From contig JACVGT010000021.1 of assembly GCA_018992685.1 (NCBI GenBank), positions 32,001 to 96,000 of the forward strand: a stretch of DNA of 64,000 nt, in the 5' to 3' direction. Below are positions 44,468-56,111 of this stretch, in pieces; position 1 is the stretch's first letter, and every line of letters begins with the position of its first letter. The DNA is from Theionarchaea archaeon (GTDB lineage Archaea > Methanobacteriota_B > Thermococci > Methanofastidiosales > SZ-28-30). The translations under genes and the position numbers were made by a program. The notes under the pieces are model-generated. The model did not search any database. It saw nothing but the letters and a program-made list of their open reading frames with translations, and had not been told where the DNA came from.

Positions 44468-46393
44468 ATGAACCACTGCTTCCCATACCCGGAGATGCGC
44501 CTGCACCAGGAAGAACTGATTCATCTCATGCTGGAACATGTATCACTGGGCAGAAATGTGTTATTTGAGGCAGCCACGGGGTTTGGGAAGACGATTTGTG
44601 TCCTGTCGTCTCTGCTTCCTGTAGCTGATGCAGCCGGGAAGAAGATTGTGTATTGCTGTCGGACTCACAAGCAAATGGACAGAGTCATCGATGAATTGAA
44701 TGCTATTTCCCCGAATCATCCCGCATCTGGCATCTCACTGAGGGGAAGGCGGGACATGTGCCTGCATCCCACCGTGAAGAACCATGCGATGGATACAGCA
44801 TCTGCTCTCTATCTGTGCAAACTGCTGAGAAGCCTTGAGCGATGCGAGTACCATCTGAAATTCAAAGAGAAGCAGGAACAGGTTTACGAAATGGAAATAG
44901 CCCTTTCAAGGCGACCTTCGTACTCTTCTGAGATTCTGGATATCTGTATGGAAGCAGGAATTTGTCCCTATGACTTCATAAAAGAGGTGGCAAAGAATGT
45001 AGACGTGGTGGCCTGTTCCTACATGTACCTGTTTCACCCCCCCATACGCGAGAATTTTCTGGAGATTGTAGGGTGCCACCTCGAGGACATGATTGTGGTT
45101 CTGGATGAAGCGCATAACCTTCCTGATCTGTCTATACGGCTGGGATCGGACATACTGAGTACCATCTCCTTACAAGCAGCGCAGAAAGAGGCTGAAGAGT
45201 ATGAGGAACCAGATATTCTTTTCATTCTGCAAATCGTGGAACAGGTCATTGAACAGTTGGCTCAGAAATATGAACTGAACCAGGAAGATGAGGTCATTCT
45301 GAGTTATGTGGAACTGATGAATAGACTTCCGGGAGGAGAACACAAACTCCTGGAACTGTTCCGGTACATGAGAAAAGTGGGGGAAGAGGTCCAGAAAGAC
45401 AGGCTCAAGAAGGGCAGACCTCCCCGTTCCTACATTCACGGATGTGCCTTCTTTTTGATTAACTGGCTCAATGTCAAAGAAAGGGAAGACTACTGCTATT
45501 TGATCAAGCGGTTCTATACCCGCAGAGGGCATCCTGCATTCAGGCTGGAAATTGTCGATTTAGACCCCCGGAATATCTGCACTCAAGTCCTGAGCAATGT
45601 ACATGCATCTGTTTCTATGTCAGGTACTCTCACTCCCTTACATGCTTTTGCAGAGGTGGTAGGGTTAACCAATTATGAATCCAGGACATTCCCCACTCCC
45701 TTTCATCCTTCCAATATATTCGTGGCAGCTGTCCGGGGAGTAACAACCAAGGGCAACTTTCGCAGTCAGGAAATGTATCGAAAGCTGACAGTGGCCGCCA
45801 GTGAGGTCATTGATAACACGCCGAAGAATGTGGGAATCTTTGCTGCATCATACGAGGTTTTGAATGGGCTTCTCTCTGCAGGATTGAAATTGATATCCTC
45901 GAAACCATTGTTTATCGAGCGGAGAGAGTATACCTCCGGGCAGAATGATGAGCTTGTTGAATCCTTCAAGGAATGTTCTCACGAACATGGTGCTGTCTTG
46001 CTGGGGGTCATGGGGGGGAGAAATGCAGAGGGAGAAGACTTCCCTGGAGATCAGATGAATGCAGTGGTATTGGTAGGCGTCCCCTATGCGCAGCCCACGC
46101 CCCGTGTTGAGGCTCAGATACGGTACTACACCCAGGTCTTCCCCAACAAAGGGAAGTATTATGGATATTTCTTGCCCGCCCACCGGAAACTGAGCCAGGG
46201 AGCGGGGAGAGCACTTCGAATGGTCACTGATCGGGCAGCCATCGTGTTCCTGGACGAAAGGGTTATCCAGCCCTTTGTGAGAAAAGACATTGCCCAGTGG
46301 ATGCGGAGTGAAATGAAGATGCTTGAAGGCAACGAAGACCTCCTGGGAAGAATGATTGACCGATTCTTCAGGGGGACTGATGAGTCCCTGTGA
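44468..46393 (+). CDS. xpd: XPD/Rad3 Fe-S DNA helicase
   Basis: ATGFGKT, Fe-S Cys residues, CPY, DEAHN, MSGTL and QGAGR. Confidence 0.93.
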   Translation: MNHCFPYPEMRLHQEELIHLMLEHVSLGRNVLFEAATGFGKTICVLSSLLPVADAAGKKIVYCCRTHKQMDRVIDELNAISPNHPASGISLRGRRDMCLHPTVKNHAMDTASALYLCKLLRSLERCEYHLKFKEKQEQVYEMEIALSRRPSYSSEILDICMEAGICPYDFIKEVAKNVDVVACSYMYLFHPPIRENFLEIVGCHLEDMIVVLDEAHNLPDLSIRLGSDILSTISLQAAQKEAEEYEEPDILFILQIVEQVIEQLAQKYELNQEDEVILSYVELMNRLPGGEHKLLELFRYMRKVGEEVQKDRLKKGRPPRSYIHGCAFFLINWLNVKEREDYCYLIKRFYTRRGHPAFRLEIVDLDPRNICTQVLSNVHASVSMSGTLTPLHAFAEVVGLTNYESRTFPTPFHPSNIFVAAVRGVTTKGNFRSQEMYRKLTVAASEVIDNTPKNVGIFAASYEVLNGLLSAGLKLISSKPLFIERREYTSGQNDELVESFKECSHEHGAVLLGVMGGRNAEGEDFPGDQMNAVVLVGVPYAQPTPRVEAQIRYYTQVFPNKGKYYGYFLPAHRKLSQGAGRALRMVTDRAAIVFLDERVIQPFVRKDIAQWMRSEMKMLEGNEDLLGRMIDRFFRGTDESL

Positions 46394-46407: not shown

Positions 46408-47793
46408 CTAGTACTGGAGTGAGAAGGCCCCGGGGTTCAATATGCACCGTGGATCAAGCGCTTTTTTTATCCTCTCCAGTGTATCCCTGAATTGGGGAGT
46501 CATGTCCAGGTACGGATACCAGGCAATTCCCGTCCAGTAGGGAACTCCCCCGTACTCCCAGATATCCTTCTTCTTTTCGTCCCACATGTTCCGTATGAGT
46601 TCTAGGGACTTCTGGTCATTTTCCTTCCCGTAAACATGGCCCACGAAAGAGACACAGTTATTCAGAGCAGGCATGGCACATATCAACCCAAATAACCCTT
46701 TTTTCTCGATTTCGTATTTCTTGAAAGTGGCTTTCAATTCCTCCACAATTTCAGGGATTCGGTACGTTTCCAGACAGTGGCAGGTGGCATTCCACATGCC
46801 ATATTTAAAGAGCGGGGTAATCATCTCAAATTTAGAATTCCAGTACACCTTGGGAAACATGTCCCCCAAATCCTTTCCGTTGTGTTTTTGAGCTATATTC
46901 TGGCACAGTGCCTGCTTGGCTGCTGAAATATCTGCCGAAGGCTCTTCCAGGATAACCACAAACAGTGCTTCAATGTCAGGGAATAAATCTGCCATTTCCT
47001 CAATGACTCCTCTGATGGATGCTTTATCACATACCATCGTCATGTCCTCGGCAATCATCAATTTTTGGATGTCATAGAAGGCGCCTGTGGCATCCTCAAT
47101 GTTCGAGAACCCGAATGCACAATATGCAATACTTTCAGGGTACGGATAGATTCGCACGGTAATGTCATATTTCACCCCCAACAGGGAATGATCACCACAG
47201 AATAGCCCTGTTAAATCTGCGGTACAGGTAAACCTATTGAAGGGACGGGCATGAGGGTTGATTCGAGACCCCGTTTCCAGGATGTCTCCTTCGGGCAAGA
47301 CCACCGTGATGCTGGTCACTCCCTGGGGAGCCTGACCCCATTTGGCTGACGCCAGCCCAATAGAATTTGACGATACAGACCCTCCGATGGTTGCTGAATG
47401 ACCGGAGTAAGGTCCTCTGAATCCTGGTTTGAACCCTTTCTGTTTCAGCTCATAGAGAAGGTTTCCCCAGGTACATCCTGCACCTACAGTGGCCGTCATG
47501 TTATCGGGAGTTATAACTACCTGGTTAATTCCCGTCATGTCCAGCATGATTCCTCCCCTTTGGGGAAGACATGCACCTCCCATGCCACAACGGCCCCCTG
47601 CAGCAATGACAGGGGTTCCTGTCTGATTGGCAAGCTTGAGAATATCTGCTATGTGCTGGGCAGTTAGGGGTCTCACCACGAAATCAGGTTTGAGCGTCTG
47701 TATGAGAGACGCATCCCTAGAGTAAGAGAGTAACACAGTATCCCTATCAGTAGCATTGGATTCTCCCACAATGTTCTGGAGTCTGGAAAGCAT
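46408..47793 (-). CDS. FAD-linked oxidoreductase (GlcD/D-lactate dehydrogenase family)
   Basis: PDFVVRP, ATIGG and KKALDPRCILNPG. Confidence 0.88.
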   Translation of the reverse strand: MLSRLQNIVGESNATDRDTVLLSYSRDASLIQTLKPDFVVRPLTAQHIADILKLANQTGTPVIAAGGRCGMGGACLPQRGGIMLDMTGINQVVITPDNMTATVGAGCTWGNLLYELKQKGFKPGFRGPYSGHSATIGGSVSSNSIGLASAKWGQAPQGVTSITVVLPEGDILETGSRINPHARPFNRFTCTADLTGLFCGDHSLLGVKYDITVRIYPYPESIAYCAFGFSNIEDATGAFYDIQKLMIAEDMTMVCDKASIRGVIEEMADLFPDIEALFVVILEEPSADISAAKQALCQNIAQKHNGKDLGDMFPKVYWNSKFEMITPLFKYGMWNATCHCLETYRIPEIVEELKATFKKYEIEKKGLFGLICAMPALNNCVSFVGHVYGKENDQKSLELIRNMWDEKKKDIWEYGGVPYWTGIAWYPYLDMTPQFRDTLERIKKALDPRCILNPGAFSLQY

Positions 47794-48067
47794 ACTATGC
47801 GGGTGGTATGACGTTATAAATAACTTTTCATTTCACATGCGTTGAGCCCTGCCAGGCGGCAAGGTTCAATCGTCTCGGTCTCAGAAGCCCGCTGATGAGA
47901 ATACCCCACAGGAATATGGGTAAGAAATGAACCTTGCACTTTGAGAACCCGTATGATCCCTGATTCCTCTTTTCTCACTCTCAGGCTTCAATTATCCACC
48001 GAGTTCAGAATATGGTAGCTTTTCAAAGAAGAGGGCCCAGGCAGCCACATTTCCCATATCCTGCATA

Positions 48068-49663
48068 TTATGTCAAATGTAACGTTCTAACGCTGTTGTT
48101 TCTCCGAGAGGTTTTTCTCCACCAGATTCCCATGATACGTTTCGATCTCCACAGACTATGTAGTTCTGAAATGATGAGTACCCGGTCAAAAATATCCACA
48201 ACATTAAACGAATTGCCAAAAAGACTCCTCACATACTGACCAGAAACGGCATTCGCATTGGAAATTACCGTATTGTCAACTCTGGATGCATAGGGATAGG
48301 AAGAATGGCCTGTAAGCACCAAATCTACCTGGAGGTCGCACAGTGTTTTCAAGACGTCTCCTGCATCTTCCAGTAGCCCCTTCTCTCTGATATGGGGCAA
48401 AGGAATGACGTTGTGGTGCAGGAACACGATGCTCATGTCCTGTTCCTGCTCTCTGATACCCCTTTCCAGTTTGGCCAGCTCGAATCGCCCTACAGCCCCC
48501 ACATCTGAATCATACTGAGAAGAGTTCACTGCATGCACATGAACCAGTGGGTTCTCAAAGTCCTGGTCCCATCCGCCTGCTAATCGGGGAAAGAGTTCAT
48601 ATCCAATATAGTTGATGTCTCGGGGCCCGGGCGTATATACTACGGGAGAACTGATCTGGCTCAAATACGTTTCTGCCAGATCGTAGTGGAGAGGAATTCC
48701 CGCCTCCACAATATCGCCGCAGTGGACCACAAGATCTGGTGAGAGAGCATTAATCTTTCTCACAGCATTTTCAAACTTTTTCCTCTCAAACATTTTTCGA
48801 TCCGAAAAAAAGGTACCTGCAATGTGAATTATTCGGGCCAGCTTCTTACCTTCTGAAATGAAGATCTCACTTGAGACACGGGGGTACTCATGTGGCTGAT
48901 ATTCCTGGAAGTGTTGTGGCCGAGACGGAGCGGTGTCACCAGCACTCCCATAGCACTGGGATCGTTCATTCCCTACTCTCCTGATGGTGATGGTGATCTT
49001 CTGAGGTGAAATGTCCACCTGGTTATAACTGCATGCATCTCCCGCTCTCACCTTCCTGCAGGACATGCAGCCCGCATTGCTGATGATCATGTCATCCACA
49101 TCGACCACATTCGGGTAGTGACGGTGGCCGGATAAAACGAGGTTTACATTATACTTTTGGAGTAAATCCATCAAATCTCCTGCATTGAACAGGACGTTTC
49201 TCTCTGTACCTGCCTTTGGAACAGGGACCAGGTGGTGATGGACTGCCACTATTTTTATCTTCTTTGAACTGTACTTCATCAGCTGAGTTTTCAACCAATT
49301 GAACTTGCTGCTTCCCACTCTGCCCTCATTGCGATCGGGAATGGAACTGTCCACGTAAAGGAGTACATAATCATCACCCTCTTTCACACCATTGAATTCC
49401 CCGTAGTACTCATTGAAAAGTTCGTATCCAACGTTACGTGAATCATGGTTTCCCGGGATAATCACAAGTGGCTTTTTTATCGTGTCGATGAAAGCCTTGG
49501 AATGTTCATACGCTTCCCTCAGTCCAGAGTCAGTCACGTCGCCTGTGTGAACCACCAGATCAAAAGGAAGGCGGTTAACCTCTTCCACGATCTGCGAAAA
49601 GGGTTCCTTCTTGAATTCTCCTCCAGGAGTGATGTGAGAATCCGAGATATGAGCAATTCTCAT
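48068..49663 (-). CDS. Tandem calcineurin-like metallophosphoesterase (intact N-domain, degenerate C-domain)
   Basis: Domain 1: DSH, GD, GNHD, HHH, GHRH; domain 2: HIAGT, GD, GPRD, HHN, GHSS. Confidence 0.88.
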   Translation of the reverse strand: MRIAHISDSHITPGGEFKKEPFSQIVEEVNRLPFDLVVHTGDVTDSGLREAYEHSKAFIDTIKKPLVIIPGNHDSRNVGYELFNEYYGEFNGVKEGDDYVLLYVDSSIPDRNEGRVGSSKFNWLKTQLMKYSSKKIKIVAVHHHLVPVPKAGTERNVLFNAGDLMDLLQKYNVNLVLSGHRHYPNVVDVDDMIISNAGCMSCRKVRAGDACSYNQVDISPQKITITIRRVGNERSQCYGSAGDTAPSRPQHFQEYQPHEYPRVSSEIFISEGKKLARIIHIAGTFFSDRKMFERKKFENAVRKINALSPDLVVHCGDIVEAGIPLHYDLAETYLSQISSPVVYTPGPRDINYIGYELFPRLAGGWDQDFENPLVHVHAVNSSQYDSDVGAVGRFELAKLERGIREQEQDMSIVFLHHNVIPLPHIREKGLLEDAGDVLKTLCDLQVDLVLTGHSSYPYASRVDNTVISNANAVSGQYVRSLFGNSFNVVDIFDRVLIISELHSLWRSKRIMGIWWRKTSRRNNSVRTLHLT

Positions 49664-49682
49664 GTTTATCCTGCATTCACGC

Positions 49683-50099
49683 CTATTCGCTGGAGATCAC
49701 TGTCTCCAAGAGCTGTCTTTCCGGATCTACAAGATCTTTTAAGGAAAATAGCCCTGTGATCTGTCCTCGTTCTGTGATGAGAACATGACGTATCTGGTGT
49801 TGTTGCATTAATTCAAGCACTTTAGATACGGGAGAGTCAATGTCAGTTGTGATGAGGTCCCTGGTCATGATGCTGGAAATGGGTTTAGCATAGGACAGTC
49901 CTTTAGCCACCACCCGCTCGATAACGTCCCCCTGGGTTAGGAATCCCACGACTCCTTCATTACACACTACCAGAGAACCTACCTTGAATTCCACCATTTT
50001 TCGACAGGCTTCCTGAATAGTTTCATGTTCAGATATGCCCACCAGTTTTCGTGTGGTGTACTGTCTGATGGGAACTGAAAGGTTATTAATATCATTCAT
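49683..50099 (-). CDS. CBS-pair protein
   Basis: Two CBS repeats (VGSLVV..GFLT..D; IRHVLI..GLFS..D); overlaps the pgk2 stop. Confidence 0.9.
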   Translation of the reverse strand: MNDINNLSVPIRQYTTRKLVGISEHETIQEACRKMVEFKVGSLVVCNEGVVGFLTQGDVIERVVAKGLSYAKPISSIMTRDLITTDIDSPVSKVLELMQQHQIRHVLITERGQITGLFSLKDLVDPERQLLETVISSE

Positions 50100-50973
50100 C
50101 CGTTGCAGCCTCCTTTTGAAGTTGATCATACATTCTATTTAAGATTTGAGTGACTGTCTCCTCTAACGCTATATTTTCCAGAACCGGAACCCTCTCTCTA
50201 TTAGCCCTCCCTACGATGTGGTCTTGTATCTGCCTGATCTTGTCAATATTCTCAAGGTAGTGTTCTGGAGGTCTTCTGCTGTCCTTTGCTCGAGCATAGA
50301 ACCTGTTCACGTGTTCCTCTCTGTCACTGAGGGTAAGAACGAAATGAAATATCGTCCGATCCTGACGTTCAACATACCCAGGGACAAGATGAATTCCTTC
50401 CATTACAAGACTGAACCCCTCGGTCAGTGCTCTGTTGATTATGGCATTAATCCCCACAGCAACATGAGATACCTGAAGCTCAAAAGCATAGATCACTGCA
50501 CTCAAAAATGAAGAAGGAGCCTGAATTTCTTTCCATGCGGAAAATGAGGACGTGTGAAGAGTGGGGAGTAGATCCCGTGAGACCATTTTCCGCATGACCT
50601 CACGCACGACGTCTGTCCCAATAATGGAATGAATCCCCAGTCGATAGCTGATTTCAAAGGCTACCGTAGATTTCCCGATGCCTGTGGCACCTCCCAGAAG
50701 AACAACAAGTGACTGTTTTTTCTTTCTCAGTGAATGCCACATCTGGTAGAACGAGGCGATACGTGGGTACCCGTCATCTATCAGGATGTGGTAAGTCATG
50801 TCAGTGAGATCTTGTTCAGAGATCCGGGAGATTCCTGAGGTCACCATTCTCTGCCCAATTTCCTCTGCCATTTTGTAGGCCCTGTTCACATCCAGCCCTG
50901 CTTTCAACAAAGATCCGGCCAGGACACCCTTTGAAAATGGAGTTACATACTTCTTGCCTACTACTTCTATCGT
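50092..50973 (-). CDS. pgk2: 2-phosphoglycerate kinase (probable ACG start)
   Basis: N-terminal ATP cone PFSKGVLA.SL, GGATGIGKST, TDVVREVMR, LHTSS and EGIHLVPG. Confidence 0.92.
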   Translation of the reverse strand, partial: TIEVVGKKYVTPFSKGVLAGSLLKAGLDVNRAYKMAEEIGQRMVTSGISRISEQDLTDMTYHILIDDGYPRIASFYQMWHSLRKKKQSLVVLLGGATGIGKSTVAFEISYRLGIHSIIGTDVVREVMRKMVSRDLLPTLHTSSFSAWKEIQAPSSFLSAVIYAFELQVSHVAVGINAIINRALTEGFSLVMEGIHLVPGYVERQDRTIFHFVLTLSDREEHVNRFYARAKDSRRPPEHYLENIDKIRQIQDHIVGRANRERVPVLENIALEETVTQILNRMYDQLQKEAATDE

Positions 50974-52313
50974 GTGATCCCCTCCTCAGCCTTTCTTGCC
51001 AGCTGGACAATGGCATCCTCCAAGCTGGTGACAGTTCCTCCTCGAAGGCGGGGAACGTTATCCATGAACACGACATTGCGGTCGAATTTCAAAGCCTCTC
51101 GCGTGGCCACATCAATGGCAGAGGCCTTTATTTCAGTAAGGAGAGTATCTGCCTGGGGAAGGAATTGGTTCAGGTCTTTCTTTAATCTCGGTCGATTAGA
51201 AAGATGGGGAGAAGCCTTTACTATTTCACAACTGAAGGTTTGTTCGAGGTAGGGTACCAGAGTAGATTCCAGGACTGAGGGGGGCGCCGTGGTAGCCAGG
51301 AATACTTTTCTACCTGAAATGTCTTTCAGGGGTACCGGCCTGAACACGCAGTGTGCCTGGGGGAGTTCGGGCTTGATTTCACTAATTGCTTTTTGCATCT
51401 CTGCCACTTTTTGCGGCGAAGCCATGGGTTCTTCACACATCATGAGGATGAGCAGATCGGCCATGAGAATTCTAAAGGGACCGAAGTACTCGTTGATGAA
51501 TTCCAATGGTTGATGCGCTCCTGCAATCACGATGCAGCAATCTGTATTCACAGGAGGGAAGGTGGTGCCTGACCCCTCTAGTATTACGAAGGTTGCTTCC
51601 AGTGTATTTGCCAGTTGGGCTCCTTTTTCCATATTAGATGAAAAAGGAACTCCAGCCATTCCACCACCACATCGCCTGCATCCGACTGTTGCTACGCGGG
51701 AAATAAGAGCATTCTCCCAGTGGTCTGACGCAGCGTGCTTTCCCTGATTTGCCTGTTTCAGTAGATACGAAGGAGTGAGTTCGATGGTGTCACCTCTGAT
51801 GATTTCGGGCTGAGCTGGACCTCCCCTTCCCATCGTCACAATCCAGGGAATATAACCTGAAGCCTTGAGTGTTCGGGCTATGTATCCCGAGACAGCAGTT
51901 TTTCCCACCCTCTTTGTTGTCCCCACCACGGAAAAACTGGGACGTTTCAGAATCTTTGGGTATCTTGGAGGTGTAAACAGGAAGTCTGATCCCTTGTATT
52001 GGACTCCTTCTTTCATGAGCGCACAGGCGAGATGTAACCTGCTGACGTAGTCCATAATCGGCTCGTCTGAAAGATCCACAACTTGCTCAATCTCATGAGC
52101 CGAGCAAGCTGTCACAATAACGTCGTGAATATCTCTTGACTGGTTTCCTCTGTAGATAGGAATATCAAGATGTGCTGTCAATTCCTCAATGCTACCGACT
52201 TTTTCCGTTCCTCCCAAGAAAACAGCAGCTCTCACGTCACCTTCAATAGTTGCCAACGCATCTTTCGTTACTGGTGGATAATGTTCGCCGTCTATGAGGG
52301 CAAGAATATTCAT
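50967..52313 (-). CDS. cpgS: Cyclic 2,3-diphosphoglycerate synthetase
   Basis: LIDGEHYPPV, DLSDEP, KRVGKTA, MGRGGP, HAASD, GCRRCGGG and EIKA.AID. Confidence 0.95.
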   Translation of the reverse strand: MNILALIDGEHYPPVTKDALATIEGDVRAAVFLGGTEKVGSIEELTAHLDIPIYRGNQSRDIHDVIVTACSAHEIEQVVDLSDEPIMDYVSRLHLACALMKEGVQYKGSDFLFTPPRYPKILKRPSFSVVGTTKRVGKTAVSGYIARTLKASGYIPWIVTMGRGGPAQPEIIRGDTIELTPSYLLKQANQGKHAASDHWENALISRVATVGCRRCGGGMAGVPFSSNMEKGAQLANTLEATFVILEGSGTTFPPVNTDCCIVIAGAHQPLEFINEYFGPFRILMADLLILMMCEEPMASPQKVAEMQKAISEIKPELPQAHCVFRPVPLKDISGRKVFLATTAPPSVLESTLVPYLEQTFSCEIVKASPHLSNRPRLKKDLNQFLPQADTLLTEIKASAIDVATREALKFDRNVVFMDNVPRLRGGTVTSLEDAIVQLARKAEEGITR

Positions 52314-52376
52314 CAAATGAACTTGTTTAGTATGTATTTAAGGGTTCGCTTGAGAAAGAAGGGACTTCTCATACCT

Positions 52377-52763
52377 TTTCCCGTGGAACGAACCACGGGC
52401 TTGAGTTCTTATATTACTAGTTATTTGCGGACGAGGGGGCTTGGTTGATTCTGCTAGTTGAGATGGGGTGTGACGAGGACCGTAAAATAGGAGTGAAGTA
52501 ATTCGTTAGGAACGGGAAGGTGATTATTGAGTCTCGGAGAGGTCTTGATTGATTGTTTTTTGAGTGGCTGCCCTACCCCTTTATTTCCTGTGGAAGTGGG
52601 GAAGAGGAAATGGTCGCTTATGTAGTGATAGAAGAATGAAATGGTTACTTGGTTAAAAAAGATTGTACGCTTATAAAGATTCCTAACGAAAATTACTGCG
52701 CACCTAGCCGCGAAGTTACTTATCTTCTTATAACCCGTCATATTCCAGTGGAAATGAAGGGGG
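52377..52763. other. Probable replication origin (oriC) with ORB elements
   Basis: ORB TTCCAGTGGAAATGAAGGGGG (+, 52743-52763), ORB TTCCACAGGAAATAAAGGGGT (-, 52575-52595), mini-ORB GTTCCACGGGAAA (-, 52377-52389); AT-rich spacer; directly upstream of cdc6. Confidence 0.85.
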
Positions 52764-52812
52764 CGGAGGAAGGCTTAAATAGGTTTATCATGAAGGTGAC
52801 AACGGTGATACA

Positions 52813-54102
52813 TTGGAGGGTCAGAGATCATTGGACCAGCTCTTTGATGAGCTCTTGATTCAAAGGAAGATTTTCAAAAACAAGGAAGTGCTTCGCGACC
52901 ACTATACTCCCTCACTGCTTCCTCATAGAGATCTGCAAATTGATGAACTTGCTACTATACTTGTATCTGTAATGAAGGGTGAGACCCCTTCTAATATCTT
53001 TATTTATGGTAAAACGGGAACGGGCAAGACAGCTGTTACCATTCATGTAGGAGAAGCGTTGGTAAGAAAAGTAGGTGGATGTTGCTATATCCGTCCATAT
53101 GGAACAAAACTGGAGATAAAAAAGCCGGAAATGCGCATTCCTGTTTGGCTCATCTACACGAATTGTGAAATTGTAGATACTCAGTATCGGCTGCTAGCAA
53201 AGCTTGCAGAGTACATGGGGCAGTCAGTACCTTTGACTGGGTGGCCCACAGACAAAGTGTATGAAAGCTTTGTCCGCGCCCTGGACAAAGAGGAACGATT
53301 GGTGATTGTGGTCTTGGATGAGATCGATCGACTGCTCAAGAAAGGAAGCGATAGTGTCCTTTACAATTTGACACGCATCAACTCAGATCTGAAACGAGCC
53401 AAAGTGAGTATTATTGGAATTAGCAATGACCTGAACTTCGTGGAGTTTCTGGATCCCAGAGTGAGGAGTTCTCTGGGAGAAGAAGAATTGGTGTTTCCTC
53501 CGTATTATGCCCAGCAATTAGTTGACATTCTTTCCCATCGGGCAGAAGAGGCTTTTTTCGACAATGCACTGGATCTTGGGGTTATCCCACTGTGCGCTGC
53601 ATTTGCAGCTCAGGAACATGGTGATGCACGTCGCGCTCTAGACTTCTTGAGGATAGCAGGAGAAATTGCTGAAAGAGACAGAGCCTCTCGCGTGACTGAG
53701 AAACATGTGCGTATTGCCAAGAACCGCATTGAACAGGACAGGGTGACGGAAGTCATCAAGACCTTTCCCACCCAATCAAAGTTTGTACTGTTTGCCATAC
53801 TGCTTCTGGAGAAGTACAATGCTTCAGCCATTACCACGGGAGAAACGTACAACGTGTACAAGGAACTGTGCAGACAATCAAAGATGGACATTCTCACTCA
53901 GAGGAGGGTATCTGATATTATCAGCGAAATGGACATGATGGGGATAGTGAATGCAACGGTGGTCAGCAAAGGGCGATATGGAAGAACCAAGGAAATTCGG
54001 CTGGGAGTTCCAATGAGCCAGGTAAAGAATGTTCTGGAGAAGCACCACAAGATAGAACGAATTTCTAACTTTGTACCCCCTATTCAACGAAAACTTGTCT
54101 AG
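52813..54102 (+). CDS. cdc6: Orc1/Cdc6 replication initiator
   Basis: YGKTGTGKT, LDEID, GDARRALD and SKGRYGRT. Confidence 0.97.
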   Translation: MEGQRSLDQLFDELLIQRKIFKNKEVLRDHYTPSLLPHRDLQIDELATILVSVMKGETPSNIFIYGKTGTGKTAVTIHVGEALVRKVGGCCYIRPYGTKLEIKKPEMRIPVWLIYTNCEIVDTQYRLLAKLAEYMGQSVPLTGWPTDKVYESFVRALDKEERLVIVVLDEIDRLLKKGSDSVLYNLTRINSDLKRAKVSIIGISNDLNFVEFLDPRVRSSLGEEELVFPPYYAQQLVDILSHRAEEAFFDNALDLGVIPLCAAFAAQEHGDARRALDFLRIAGEIAERDRASRVTEKHVRIAKNRIEQDRVTEVIKTFPTQSKFVLFAILLLEKYNASAITTGETYNVYKELCRQSKMDILTQRRVSDIISEMDMMGIVNATVVSKGRYGRTKEIRLGVPMSQVKNVLEKHHKIERISNFVPPIQRKLV

Positions 54103-54326: not shown

Positions 54327-54998
54327 GTGATGCTTATGATTTCATCAGAACAACTTCTGGACGTACTGGGAAACGAAACACGGAGGATGATACTGGAACT
54401 GCTGGCAGAAAAGCCACGATATACTACAGAAATTGCCAGTTTGTTGAATATCGGTCAAAAGGCCATCAATGATCATCTCAAAATTATGTCTGACTTCGGC
54501 ATAATTGAGACGTACGTCCAAAAGCAGCAGAGAGGTTCTCCTCGAAAGTATTTCCAGGTCAATGAACGGTTCAAACTTGAATTTACATTGACTCCTGGAT
54601 TGTTCCGGATTTATGTGTTGGAACCTAGAAGTGATTGGAAATTCATCCTTGAGGAGTTTCCTGAGTTTAAAGAGCTGCAAAAAGAAGTGGAGCAAATACA
54701 GAAACTGAGGCAGATCGAGCAACATCGAAAGGTGTGCAGAGATCTGGTTCAAGAACTGGATCGACTGACACAGGCAAAAATGTATATTGAAAACCTGCTG
54801 GCAAGGACAAGAAAGCGGTGTATGATGATCATAGATTCTCTGGATCTGCCGCCTGTAGAGAGCAGGGTACTCTTTGAGGTGGTAACTGGAAAAGAAGGTC
54901 TCACTGTGGAGGGTATTGCTGAAAAGTGCAAAATTTCTACAGAAGAAACTGTACAGGCCCTGCAGAACCTGGAACAGAAAGGTGTGGTGAGATTATGA
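54327..54998 (+). CDS. ArsR-family heat-shock repressor (Phr-like)
   Basis: LLDVLGNETRR.IL..L..P.Y..EI...L.IGQKA..HL and RG.PRKYF match Pyrococcus Phr; start may be 54336. Confidence 0.85.
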   Translation: MMLMISSEQLLDVLGNETRRMILELLAEKPRYTTEIASLLNIGQKAINDHLKIMSDFGIIETYVQKQQRGSPRKYFQVNERFKLEFTLTPGLFRIYVLEPRSDWKFILEEFPEFKELQKEVEQIQKLRQIEQHRKVCRDLVQELDRLTQAKMYIENLLARTRKRCMMIIDSLDLPPVESRVLFEVVTGKEGLTVEGIAEKCKISTEETVQALQNLEQKGVVRL

Positions 54999-55531
54999 GT
55001 GTTATGTTCTGCGTGTATTGTGGGAATTATCTCTCGCAGACATGGCGGTACTGTCCATATTGTGGGAGGAAAATCTCAGGTGAATCAGAGTTGTTCGATG
55101 CTTTGTTCAGGAATGAGGTCAGGGGGATCAGCATTCAAATTATTTCAGGAGGCTTCAGAAGACAGGAGACGCGAAACAAGGCGGAACGATGGAGGATCCC
55201 TATTGAAGAATCCCAGGACAGGAATGAAGAGCATACCTTGAAGGTAAAGGACAGAAAGGGTGAACGCATCGGGGCTGAATCCCTCGTTGTGCCCAGGCGA
55301 GTTGAGGAGCCCGAAGGCAGGATTCACAGAATTGGGCAGCACTGGATAATCAGGGTTACTTTGCCTGGAGTCAGGAAAGAGAATATTGATGTACGAAAGC
55401 TGGAGACATCAATTGAAGTGAAGGCACACAAAAATGGTGAAGCATATTTTAGACAATTCGAAGTGCCAGAATCTGCACGAATCATCTCACAGCACATGGA
55501 AGGGGATGAACTCGTTGTAGAAGTGGGGTGA
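54995..55531 (+). CDS. Hsp20/alpha-crystallin-like protein with N-terminal zinc ribbon
   Basis: CVYC..CPYC and LPGVRKENIDV..SIEVKA; ATGA overlap with phr. Confidence 0.8.
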   Translation: MSVMFCVYCGNYLSQTWRYCPYCGRKISGESELFDALFRNEVRGISIQIISGGFRRQETRNKAERWRIPIEESQDRNEEHTLKVKDRKGERIGAESLVVPRRVEEPEGRIHRIGQHWIIRVTLPGVRKENIDVRKLETSIEVKAHKNGEAYFRQFEVPESARIISQHMEGDELVVEVG

Positions 55532-55532
55532 C

Positions 55533-56111
55533 ATGATGGATAAAAAAGAGCGCAGTGGCATGCAGCCTGAAACGAATGCCCAGCCTGCAGATGACGAGGG
55601 AGAACCCGTATCTGAATCCATTGAGGTCCCACCTCAATGTCAGGAAGAGATCGATGCATTATGCAGAGAGATTGAGGAACAGGATCGTACGGTGAAGGAG
55701 TATCTTTCCACCCTCCAGAGGTTGCAGGCTGAATTCGAAAATTACAAGAAAAGGGTGGAACGAGAGCGAATTGAGTATACAGAGCAGGCAAATACAGCCT
55801 TGCTTGAGAAATTACTTCCCGTTCTGGATAATTTCGAGCGAGCATTGAATGCAGAGAGTTCTGACATCCACTCATTGAGGAAGGGCCTCGAGATGATCTT
55901 CTCGCAGTTCAGAAAGATACTGGAGGGAGAGGGACTTTCATCCATCGATGCTCTAGGAGAAGAATTTGATCCTTACTATCATGAGGCCGTCTTGGTAGCA
56001 TGCGGCGATTATGAAGACGACACTGTTATTGAGGTGCTGGAGAAGGGATATATGTTTAAGCATCGCTGTCTCCGGCCTTCAAAAGTTAAGGTGGGAAAGA
56101 GAGGTGATTAA
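55533..56111 (+). CDS. grpE: Nucleotide exchange factor GrpE
   Basis: AEFENYKKR, LLPVLDNFERA, FDP..HEA and LRPSKV. Confidence 0.97.
   Translation: MMDKKERSGMQPETNAQPADDEGEPVSESIEVPPQCQEEIDALCREIEEQDRTVKEYLSTLQRLQAEFENYKKRVERERIEYTEQANTALLEKLLPVLDNFERALNAESSDIHSLRKGLEMIFSQFRKILEGEGLSSIDALGEEFDPYYHEAVLVACGDYEDDTVIEVLEKGYMFKHRCLRPSKVKVGKRGD

Follow-up and report, generated by a model that had tools for sequence, protein, structure and literature searches.

In the window, by which we mean the whole stretch of 64,000 nucleotides (nt) analysed here, lying on contig 6 of a 3.03-Mb Theionarchaea archaeon assembly rated 91% complete, four co-oriented genes on the minus strand encode a synthetase (cpgS) of cyclic 2,3-diphosphoglycerate (cDPG), a 2-phosphoglycerate kinase (2PGK; gene pgk2), a stand-alone CBS-pair protein, and a tandem metallophosphoesterase (MPE). 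From sequence and gene context we consider it probable, at roughly 0.6, that these four genes constitute one module that both makes and breaks down 2,3-diphosphoglycerate (2,3-DPG) and cDPG, with the MPE serving as a regulated hydrolytic arm that acts on cDPG and/or 2,3-DPG. On the same grounds it is clear that the MPE and CBS genes are part of the cDPG/2,3-DPG pathway, and the MPE is a strong candidate for the unassigned enzyme that breaks down cDPG or its precursor. The genes for cDPG synthesis have been known since the 1990s and the structure of the synthetase since 2023. The kind of enzyme to which the MPE belongs is likewise known; its association with this pathway is previously undescribed in the literature searched. 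The module is composed as follows.

50967..52313, minus strand: cpgS, cDPG synthetase, 448 amino acids (aa) from the ATG at 52313, the same ATG that its relatives use.
50092..50973, minus strand: pgk2, 2-phosphoglycerate kinase bearing an ATP-cone at its N terminus, 293 codons from the ACG at 50973-50971.
49683..50099, minus strand: stand-alone CBS-pair (Bateman) gene, 138 aa, with two PF00571 motifs.
48068..49663, minus strand: tandem MPE, 531 aa, matching Metallophos (E 1.7e-32) in two stretches.
48962..49663, minus strand: N-terminal domain of the MPE, residues 1-234, with intact calcineurin-like phosphoesterase motifs.
48914..48967, minus strand: interdomain linker, residues 233-250, with a predicted local distance difference test score (pLDDT) <50.
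48104..48898, minus strand: C-terminal domain of the MPE, residues 256-520, a diverged duplicate that has lost most metal ligands and is strongly conserved.

The genes are tightly packed, with a 7-nt overlap between the cpgS stop codon (50967-69) and the pgk2 start (50973), an 8-nt overlap between the pgk2 stop codon (50092-94) and the CBS ATG (50099), and a 19-nt gap between the CBS stop codon (49683-85) and the MPE ATG (49663). An earlier reading of this DNA (hereafter the original prediction) had described the same co-orientation and spacings, which proved to be exact. In a phmmer search of the PDB, the cpgS product matched the solved cDPG synthetase of Methanothermus fervidus (8ORU/8ORK) over nearly its full length (E 1.4e-138, residues 4-443 of 449) as well as 9SXB (E 1.7e-126), and it carries the family-invariant stretches GCRRCGGG and FLGGTEK. 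No Pfam or NCBIfam model matched this product, and its membership in the family is given by the full-length similarity to the characterised synthetase. An alternative start of cpgS, a TTG, lies one codon upstream at 52316. Read over 50101-50973, pgk2 scores 367.4 bits against the 2PGK equivalog model NF003259 (profile positions 5-298), above the curated cut-off of 343. The closest relatives of the window MPE (86-89% identity) are labelled Theionarchaea or Methanofastidiosia.

The MPE is made of two related halves (33% identity over 226 aa, E 1e-37). Its N-terminal domain carries the motifs DxH (D8, H10), GD (D42), GNHD (N72-D74), HHH (142-144), and GHxH (H180, H182), and the seven two-metal ligands that mark the GpdQ/CpdA/Rv0805 branch of the metallophosphoesterases (D8, H10, D42, N72, H143, H180, and H182) are all present there and invariant or nearly so in 66 relatives. 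The C-terminal domain lacks this set, with D8 changed to G, H10 to F, N72 to P, and H182 to S, together with the neighbouring H73 to R; most relatives have also lost the GD aspartate and the first GHxH histidine. The C half is conserved about as much as the N half in the 66 sequences, G316, D349, H416, H417, E432, D433, G452, and N469 being invariant and H314, C315, R426, and E427 nearly so. Comparison of the ligands in the two halves bears out the one intact and one degenerate domain of the original prediction, and the C-terminal domain is, as read from these sequences, a conserved pseudo-enzyme domain, that is, an inactive duplicate. An AlphaFold2 model built from the 66-sequence alignment (pLDDT 89.1; predicted template-modelling score, pTM, 0.89 for the whole protein) is disordered only at the linker and the C-terminal tail, suggesting that the two domains pack in a defined arrangement. 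The linker is longer in the window protein and its closest relatives than in most of the family and appears as an insertion in the alignment.

Conservation of the module was analysed in MPE-centred loci, taking one genome per species (479 relatives) and the best 80 loci. By tblastn, the CBS gene was adjacent to the MPE gene, directly upstream of it, in 73 of the 80 loci, pgk2 was present in 69, and cpgS in 55. The collinear order cpgS-pgk2-CBS-MPE of the window recurred in 42 loci and the shorter order pgk2-CBS-MPE in 14, while CBS-MPE or MPE faced a convergent pgk2(-cpgS) in 12; other arrangements or CBS-MPE only accounted for 7, and the 5 loci with the MPE only all started at a contig end. 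Moreover, label-free clustering of 968 flanking open reading frames (ORFs) recovered the four module families in 76, 67, 51, and 47 loci; the fifth-ranking family was lineage-specific with 15 loci, and nothing else exceeded 15. The archaeal loci belong to Thermococci, Thermoplasmatota, Hadarchaeota, and an Aenigmatarchaeota-labelled bin, and the bacterial ones carry the labels Acidobacteriota, Aminicenantes, Balneolaceae, Brocadiia, Bradymonadales, Cloacimonadota, Spirochaetales, and others.

The bias inherent in MPE-centred loci was countered by a scan of metagenome contigs with a cpgS profile (496 relatives, best 80 loci used). The tandem MPE accompanied cpgS in 12 of these loci, a single-domain MPE stood directly upstream of cpgS in 11, and cpgS-pgk2 only was found in 3; the other 54 are taken up below. 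The 11 single-domain loci (L149, L150, L156, L158, L159, L161, L163, L165, L167, L168, and L169) have a bacterial context, with Rho, L31, and homoserine-kinase-like neighbours and a G+C content of 42-69%. Their MPEs, of about 270 aa, share 36-42% identity with the N-terminal domain of the window protein, and no CBS gene accompanies them. Six of the 11 show the order MPE-cpgS-pgk2-transaldolase/FSA-Rho; in the other five, which are high in G+C, MPE-cpgS is followed by a gene for a GlpX-like fructose-bisphosphatase (236 bits, below the cut-off of 259) and then Rho, with no adjacent pgk2. The single-domain MPE-cpgS pair is a second, independent architecture and supports the assignment of the MPE to this pathway. 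Chance adjacency was considered and rejected, the four genes recurring side by side in 54 of the MPE-centred loci (42 collinear, 12 rearranged) and in 12 cpgS-centred ones.

On a quick maximum-likelihood tree of 72 MPEs, 23 bacterial rows are interleaved with Thermoplasmatota, and the bacterial labels require 6 changes, at least 3 of which are forced by supported branches. The pairwise distances of MPE, 2PGK, and cpgS correlate with r = 0.90-0.92 over 42 loci. From the correlated distances and the interleaved tree, the module therefore appears to move as a unit, including between the domains of life. As a separate observation, the module is split in the Pyrococcus-like genomes G039-G047 (genus g11; loci L090/L091 and L174), with cpgS-pgk2 lying apart from CBS-MPE on the same chromosome at a distance of 4 to 60 kb (about 18 kb in G047, for which the pair was checked); all four genes are kept in 9 of these 9 genomes.

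The co-occurrence was also examined across whole genomes, using 133 genomes of the window's phylum, the window's own genome included. The MPE was present in 109, cpgS in 97, and 2PGK in 107. By family, the numbers of genomes with MPE, cpgS, and 2PGK were, respectively, 2, 2, and 2 of 3 in f1; 6, 0, and 6 of 6 in f2; 0, 0, and 0 of 17 in f3; 5, 0, and 6 of 7 in f4; 1, 1, and 1 of 2 in f5; and 94, 93, and 91 of 97 in f6. MPE and 2PGK occurred together in 106 genomes, MPE only in 3, 2PGK only in 1, and neither in 23. A sample of 151 Thermoplasmata-class genomes contained the tandem MPE in 9 and full-length ATP-cone 2PGK in the same 9; 12 other genomes had only short kinase-domain paralogues. Within a sample of 121 genomes from a Balneolales-like order, the MPE was found only in the Gracilimonas isolate (G134), which has the pgk2-CBS-MPE trio and no cpgS anywhere in its genome. 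The original prediction had proposed synteny and phylogenetic profiling as its check and held that a lack of co-occurrence with cpgS/pgk2 would speak against it; both analyses revealed such co-occurrence. Furthermore, genome G125, a single contig rated 99% complete, is without cpgS and 2PGK. Comparison of its locus (L093, C1:484000-496000) with that of the congener G124 (L094) revealed a deletion that took cpgS, pgk2, and residues 1-111 of the CBS protein; what is left of the MPE lies in two reading frames, with the break at the linker. In G125, the module appears, from these sequences, to be decaying as a whole, a single case that matches the prediction of functional dependence.

Two positions of the N-terminal domain also distinguish the MPEs of this context. 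A small alignment showed R115 together with a basic residue 120 in 6 of 6 tandem N domains and in 9 of 9 single-domain MPEs linked to cpgS, and among ten single-domain representatives of unknown context R115 occurred in 2 and a basic residue 120 in none. K120 is replaced by S in f2 and by D in f4, both of which lack cpgS, whereas the Balneolaceae, likewise without cpgS, retain it. Across the three lineages that lack cpgS, there is no MPE position at which all of them consistently differ, and the enzyme there looks the same. We regard positions 115 and 120 as leads for substrate contacts, not as proof.

According to the reading that we prefer, in which the four genes together make and break down 2,3-DPG and cDPG, 2PGK would phosphorylate 2-phosphoglycerate to 2,3-DPG, and the cDPG synthetase would close the ring with consumption of ATP. 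The N-terminal domain of the MPE, with a putative two-metal site of the GpdQ/Rv0805 type, would open the cDPG anhydride to give 2,3-DPG, or dephosphorylate 2,3-DPG, or both. The C-terminal duplicate and the CBS-pair protein would be regulatory parts, probably binding a phosphorylated or adenylate ligand and thereby preventing a futile cycle. 2,3-DPG would be the common node, because 2PGK makes it, cpgS consumes it, and opening of the cDPG ring regenerates it; the pairings observed are 2PGK with MPE, cpgS with MPE, and all three together. As to the reaction itself, our expectation within this reading is divided about evenly between opening of the cDPG ring and dephosphorylation of 2,3-DPG. Each phosphorus of cDPG is an ester-plus-anhydride centre, and metallophosphoesterases of this superfamily cleave both phosphodiesters and P-O-P anhydrides, as exemplified by LpxH and the ADP-ribose/CDP-alcohol pyrophosphatases. 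A two-metal centre of the diesterase type would be well suited to attacking the esterified pyrophosphate in cDPG. LpxH/LpxG and the ADP-ribose/CDP-alcohol pyrophosphatases would be the precedent for such hydrolysis, with the differences that their substrates are unrelated and that they have no tandem pseudo-domain; the match of LpxG to the window MPE is weak (E 1.7e-11) and covers only the first 76 residues.

A narrower explanation, that the MPE is specifically a cDPG hydrolase converting the ring to 2,3-DPG with no role on 2,3-DPG itself, is a serious contender that we nevertheless find doubtful. It fits the presence of the tandem MPE in 96 of the 97 cpgS-bearing genomes of the phylum (the exception, G087, is 81% complete) and in all 7 cpgS-bearing genomes of the Thermoplasmata-class sample, the five high-G+C bacterial MPE-cpgS pairs without an adjacent pgk2, and the replacement of K120 in two of the three cpgS-less lineages. 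However, the pgk2-CBS-MPE trio stands without cpgS in 11 genomes of f2 (6 of 6) and f4 (5 of 7; loci L083-L088 for both families), in G134, and in G386, where the upstream flank extends over 6.7 kb. Such genomes argue for action on 2,3-DPG. In addition, the MPE profile equals that of full-length 2PGK in 9 of 9 Thermoplasmata-class genomes, only 7 of which have cpgS, and K120 is retained in the MPEs of the Balneolaceae although these have no cpgS. The association of the MPE with pgk2 is at least as tight as that with cpgS, which cuts against cDPG specifically.

Several points weigh against the wider reading itself, that of a module for both synthesis and breakdown. The link between MPE and cpgS is not universal, because 54 of the 80 cpgS-centred loci have cpgS alone, with no MPE, CBS, or pgk2 within the flanks, and 35 of these 54 (L101-L137 and others) have neighbours drawn from one methanogen-like set, namely, histidinol dehydrogenase (hisD), UPF0058, a Zn-protease-like gene, and a thermosome gene. 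The hosts of these 35 loci are presumably Methanobacteriales-like; one locus carries the coenzyme-M gene comA, and the methanogen-like loci come from digester, bioreactor, and peat-type records, among others. Unlike the window, these methanogen-like loci have no MPE within their flanks; from this context, therefore, cpgS does not stand beside pgk2, CBS, or MPE in organisms of the cDPG-accumulator type. Unless cpgS was lost recently, cDPG cannot be the sole substrate, because of the trios without it. The wider MPE subfamily also has other roles; in 23 of the 151 Thermoplasmata-class genomes a single-domain homologue is the only MPE, and both cpgS and full-length 2PGK are missing. The cDPG hydrolase activity of Methanothermobacter thermautotrophicus, which converts cDPG to 2,3-DPG and is the activity that the module would need, is described in a 2005 review (PMC1224877), which names no gene for it, as a membrane-bound activity that K+ and phosphate inhibit. 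The window MPE, by contrast, has no hydrophobic segment (maximum 19-residue Kyte-Doolittle mean, 1.14), looks soluble, and in this respect does not resemble that hydrolase, peripheral binding being possible. Finally, we infer the substrate from gene context alone, the closest solved relatives are diesterases whose fold does not imply monoesterase activity on 2,3-DPG, and co-expressed synthesis and hydrolysis would be wasteful unless regulated, a regulation that is only proposed here. Collectively, the original prediction is supported in part: its tie of the MPE and CBS genes to cpgS and pgk2 is upheld by synteny and profile in several phyla, and the trios without cpgS, the 54 cpgS-alone loci, and the soluble look of the protein speak against naming cDPG specifically as the substrate.

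Two further features of the cpgS-centred loci may be recorded in their own right. The conserved order around cpgS alone is aspartyl-tRNA synthetase, histidinol dehydrogenase, UPF0058, cpgS, the Zn-protease-like gene, thermosome, and acetyl-CoA synthetase, with the small UPF0058 gene directly upstream of cpgS in 30 loci and pgk2 not adjacent. At L139:8304-9881 (64% G+C), cpgS is followed by a gene for cofactor-independent phosphoglycerate mutase and preceded by ABC transporter genes.

The fold of the N-terminal domain raises another explanation, namely, that the MPE is a phosphodiesterase for cyclic or other nucleotides of the CpdA/Rv0805 kind, engaged in signalling or nucleotide turnover and at most a regulator of the pathway. 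GpdQ of Enterobacter aerogenes (PDB 3D03, 2ZO9, and 2DXL) is the best match of the domain in both sequence and fold; the profile comparison gives E 7.9e-18 with the ligand motifs DxH, GD, GNHD, H, and GHxH aligned. Foldseek ranks 3D03 first (E 9.8e-15; template-modelling score, TM, 0.71 on target), Rv0805 (2HY1) reaches a TM of 0.75 on target, and purple acid phosphatases rank after them. Every fold match spans one domain, no solved tandem structure of this kind was found among them, and a search of the ESM Atlas returned generic metallophosphoesterase clusters only. The best NCBIfam and PDB matches accordingly include CpdA (NF008359), SpdA, Rv0805, and GpdQ, the class III cyclic-nucleotide phosphodiesterases CpdA/Rv0805 (2HY1 and 3IB7) have fold and metal site in common with the MPE, and CBS pairs commonly bind adenosine derivatives. 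Nonetheless, we hold this explanation to be improbable. The CpdA equivalog score of 93.7 bits (E 1.3e-26) is far under the cut-off of 225, single-domain relatives whose context is unknown lack R115 and K/R120 (apart from R115 in 2 of 10), and a general nucleotide phosphodiesterase would not be expected to stay tightly coupled in operons with two metabolic enzymes in many phyla, in either of two architectures and despite rearrangement. Unlike CpdA and Rv0805, the window protein is a tandem one, encoded in an operon of metabolic rather than signalling genes. It differs also from GpdQ, a single-domain, oligomeric enzyme of only about 21% identity that acts on glycerophosphodiesters, in its fused inactive copy, the CBS protein alongside, and the family-specific R115/K120.

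The MPE might instead act on some other small molecule connected with the kinase or synthetase reactions, such as a side product of faulty phosphorylation (metabolite repair) or a different phosphorylated three-carbon acid, and not serve in breakdown of the main pool. This would accommodate the closer tracking of 2PGK than of cpgS and the gluconeogenic genes added in bacterial loci (transaldolase/FSA-like and the GlpX-like fructose-bisphosphatase of 236 bits), and the substrate is something that a sequence cannot reveal. Nevertheless, a near one-to-one profile and a translationally coupled order with a dedicated sensor are rare for repair enzymes, and no candidate side product is known, so that we give this possibility little likelihood.

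The need for regulation in the module arises from the co-encoding of synthesis and hydrolysis, for which the ATP-cone on 2PGK, the CBS pair, and the conserved remnant pocket of the pseudo-domain (H314, C315, D349, H416, and H417) would be the candidate sensors. The CBS protein is a Bateman pair with two PF00571 motifs (E 1.4e-23 and 1.7e-23 in two scans, 83 bits). An alignment of 42 orthologues revealed invariant P10, G52, T55, D58, T133, and I135, conserved G-x-x-T/S-x-x-D stretches (G52, T55, D58; G116, D122), which would be ligand-binding motifs, and a conserved C-terminal LETxISRE tail. The distance from the CBS stop codon to the MPE start is 0-20 nt in all 69 loci measured and 1 nt in 34 of them. 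Of the 153 strong representatives of the MPE profile, the best 150 included no fused CBS-MPE or PGK-MPE protein, nor were fused forms found among longer relatives of the CBS protein, a search that is weak as evidence. The prediction of an MPE-CBS complex scored 0.34 (runs 0.34, 0.34, and 0.62) against 0.00 for the best of three controls, on a scale where the pass mark is attained by 116 of 157 complexes of solved structure and, among 215 mismatched pairs, by 2, and where scores of 0.60 or less among passing pairs belong to only 18 of the 157 solved complexes and to both passing mismatches; at least 63% of the contacts agree between runs, and the partner pLDDT is at least 76. This model weakly supports a physical contact between the two proteins. 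That the CBS protein or the degenerate domain senses energy charge, as the original prediction had it, may be suggested from the sequences.

Regulation of this type has a parallel in the CBS-domain family II inorganic pyrophosphatases, P-O-P hydrolases whose activity is governed by adenine nucleotides that a CBS pair binds. The module would share their logic, and the window CBS protein weakly matches their CBS part; they differ in having a DHH/DHHA2 catalytic fold with the CBS pair in the same chain, compared with the calcineurin-like fold and separate CBS gene of the window. It is highly improbable that the tandem protein is mainly a non-catalytic scaffold of the Vps29 type that, with the CBS protein, binds or controls 2PGK or the cDPG synthetase, as might be read from the pseudo-enzyme half, the Vps29 structures among the fold matches, and the weakly supported CBS-MPE contact (0.34), since the seven N-domain ligands show little or no variation in 66 relatives and persist in the single-domain forms linked to cpgS, which argues for catalysis by the N-terminal domain.

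The literature searched yielded neither a gene for cDPG hydrolysis nor a description of this cluster (subscription papers, including the 1992 hydrolase paper, lie outside it), nor any paper joining "2-phosphoglycerate kinase" and "metallophosphoesterase"; the statement of the original prediction that no such gene had been assigned thus stands for this literature. The main text of the 2023 structure paper makes no mention of an operon, phosphoesterase, or CBS protein. According to PMC12136491, the anhydride of cDPG is worth about -16 kJ/mol, and cDPG is under development as an extremolyte. The cpgS gene of Thermococcus kodakarensis is TK1039 (PMC5663688), and a literature search on its neighbours yielded nothing relevant. 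In PMC4890121, the synthesis genes PYCH_14390-400 of P. yayanosii respond to stressful pressures. The supplement of a second Thermococcales omics study lists cpgS (TEU_10715) at 0.57 under high pressure and a "CBS domain-containing" gene (TEU_10730) at 0.34 at low pH; from the spacing of the locus tags, TEU_10730 may be the CBS gene of the module.

The start of pgk2 required a correction of the gene picture in the original prediction. The codon at 50973-50971 is ACG, a non-canonical start; the frame is closed upstream by a TGA at 50988-86 and contains no ATG, GTG, or TTG until the TTG at 50910, which would cost about 21 residues of the ATP-cone. Homology extends upstream of this TTG to 50973. 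When read from the ACG, the ATP-cone matches PF03477 with 32.7 bits (cut-off, 25.8), and when read from the first canonical start, the protein scores only 335.8 bits against NF003259, below the cut-off of 343. At the orthologous position, the closest relatives carry ATG (L003) or TTG (L004). No other letter was found at the window's ACG in contigs from four runs of four studies, though nearby positions vary, and the ACG is therefore real in the population. A Shine-Dalgarno-like element precedes it.

50979..50985, minus strand: Shine-Dalgarno-like GGAGGGG, its GGAGG 7 nt before the pgk2 ACG, inside the end of cpgS.

This element may function in the initiation of pgk2. From the sequence, either initiation would be non-canonical, at the ACG or at the ATA codon that follows it (7-10 nt from GGAGG), or the gene would be a weakened one.

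A candidate promoter element lies upstream of the module.

52335..52341, minus strand: TATA-like TTAAATA, read from the sequence, centred about 25 nt before the cpgS ATG.

By archaeal promoter geometry, this box is likely the promoter of the operon, giving a leaderless or near-leaderless transcript. Scans for sigma-70 promoters (7 found versus 6.9 expected) and for intrinsic terminators (4 found versus 4.4 expected) were at chance, with models unsuited to an archaeon.

The surroundings of the module in the window are of other kinds. Downstream lies a gene for a FAD-linked oxidase of the GlcD/D-lactate dehydrogenase type (46408-47793, minus strand) with its own TATA-like box (47814-47822), followed by an XPD/Rad3-type helicase gene (44468-46393, plus strand); these two, the only neighbours searched for elsewhere, reappear next to the module in no locus other than that of the closest relative, L003. 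On the other side, an orc1/cdc6 gene (52813-54102, plus strand; Cdc6_C, E 1.4e-31) is divergent from cpgS, and a zinc-ribbon protein gene with a grpE-like ORF directly after it occupies 54926-56111 (plus strand). Within the 496-bp spacer between cpgS and orc1/cdc6 (52317-52812) lie a hairpin with a perfect 7-bp stem (CCCGTGG-TTCGTT-CCACGGG, 52380-52399) and the two members of an 11-nt inverted pair, which are 167 nt apart. The spacer could be a replication origin; a search of it for origin-recognition repeats revealed only short two-copy repeats, none convincing.

For the biology of these organisms, the module suggests a picture that we put forward tentatively and regard as rather unlikely in its entirety. 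In Thermococci, Thermoplasmatota, Hadarchaeota, and scattered bacteria, cDPG/2,3-DPG would be not a static osmolyte but a rapidly turned-over buffer of phosphate and three-carbon units, possibly a signal, gated by energy charge, made by ATP-cone 2PGK and cpgS, hydrolysed by the tandem MPE under control of the pseudo-domain and CBS protein, and co-encoded in a unit that moves between the domains of life. If true, this would explain why methanogen-type loci keep cpgS apart from the hydrolase and would give a gene to an enzyme activity that has been without one since its first description. The module itself offers a clonable candidate for the hydrolase, together with a likely regulator, for a degradative side without a gene, and its tandem of active and inactive phosphoesterase domains with a separate CBS subunit would be a tidy case of regulation by a pseudo-enzyme. 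For cDPG production as an extremolyte (PMC12136491), a co-encoded hydrolase would be the thing to delete or avoid in hosts. The pathway genes are near-universal in one Thermococci family and occur also in Thermoplasmatota, Hadarchaeota, and several bacterial phyla. This wide distribution changes the picture of where the pathway occurs from that given in the abstract of the 2023 structure paper, in which cDPG is stated to be exclusive to hyperthermophilic methanogens.

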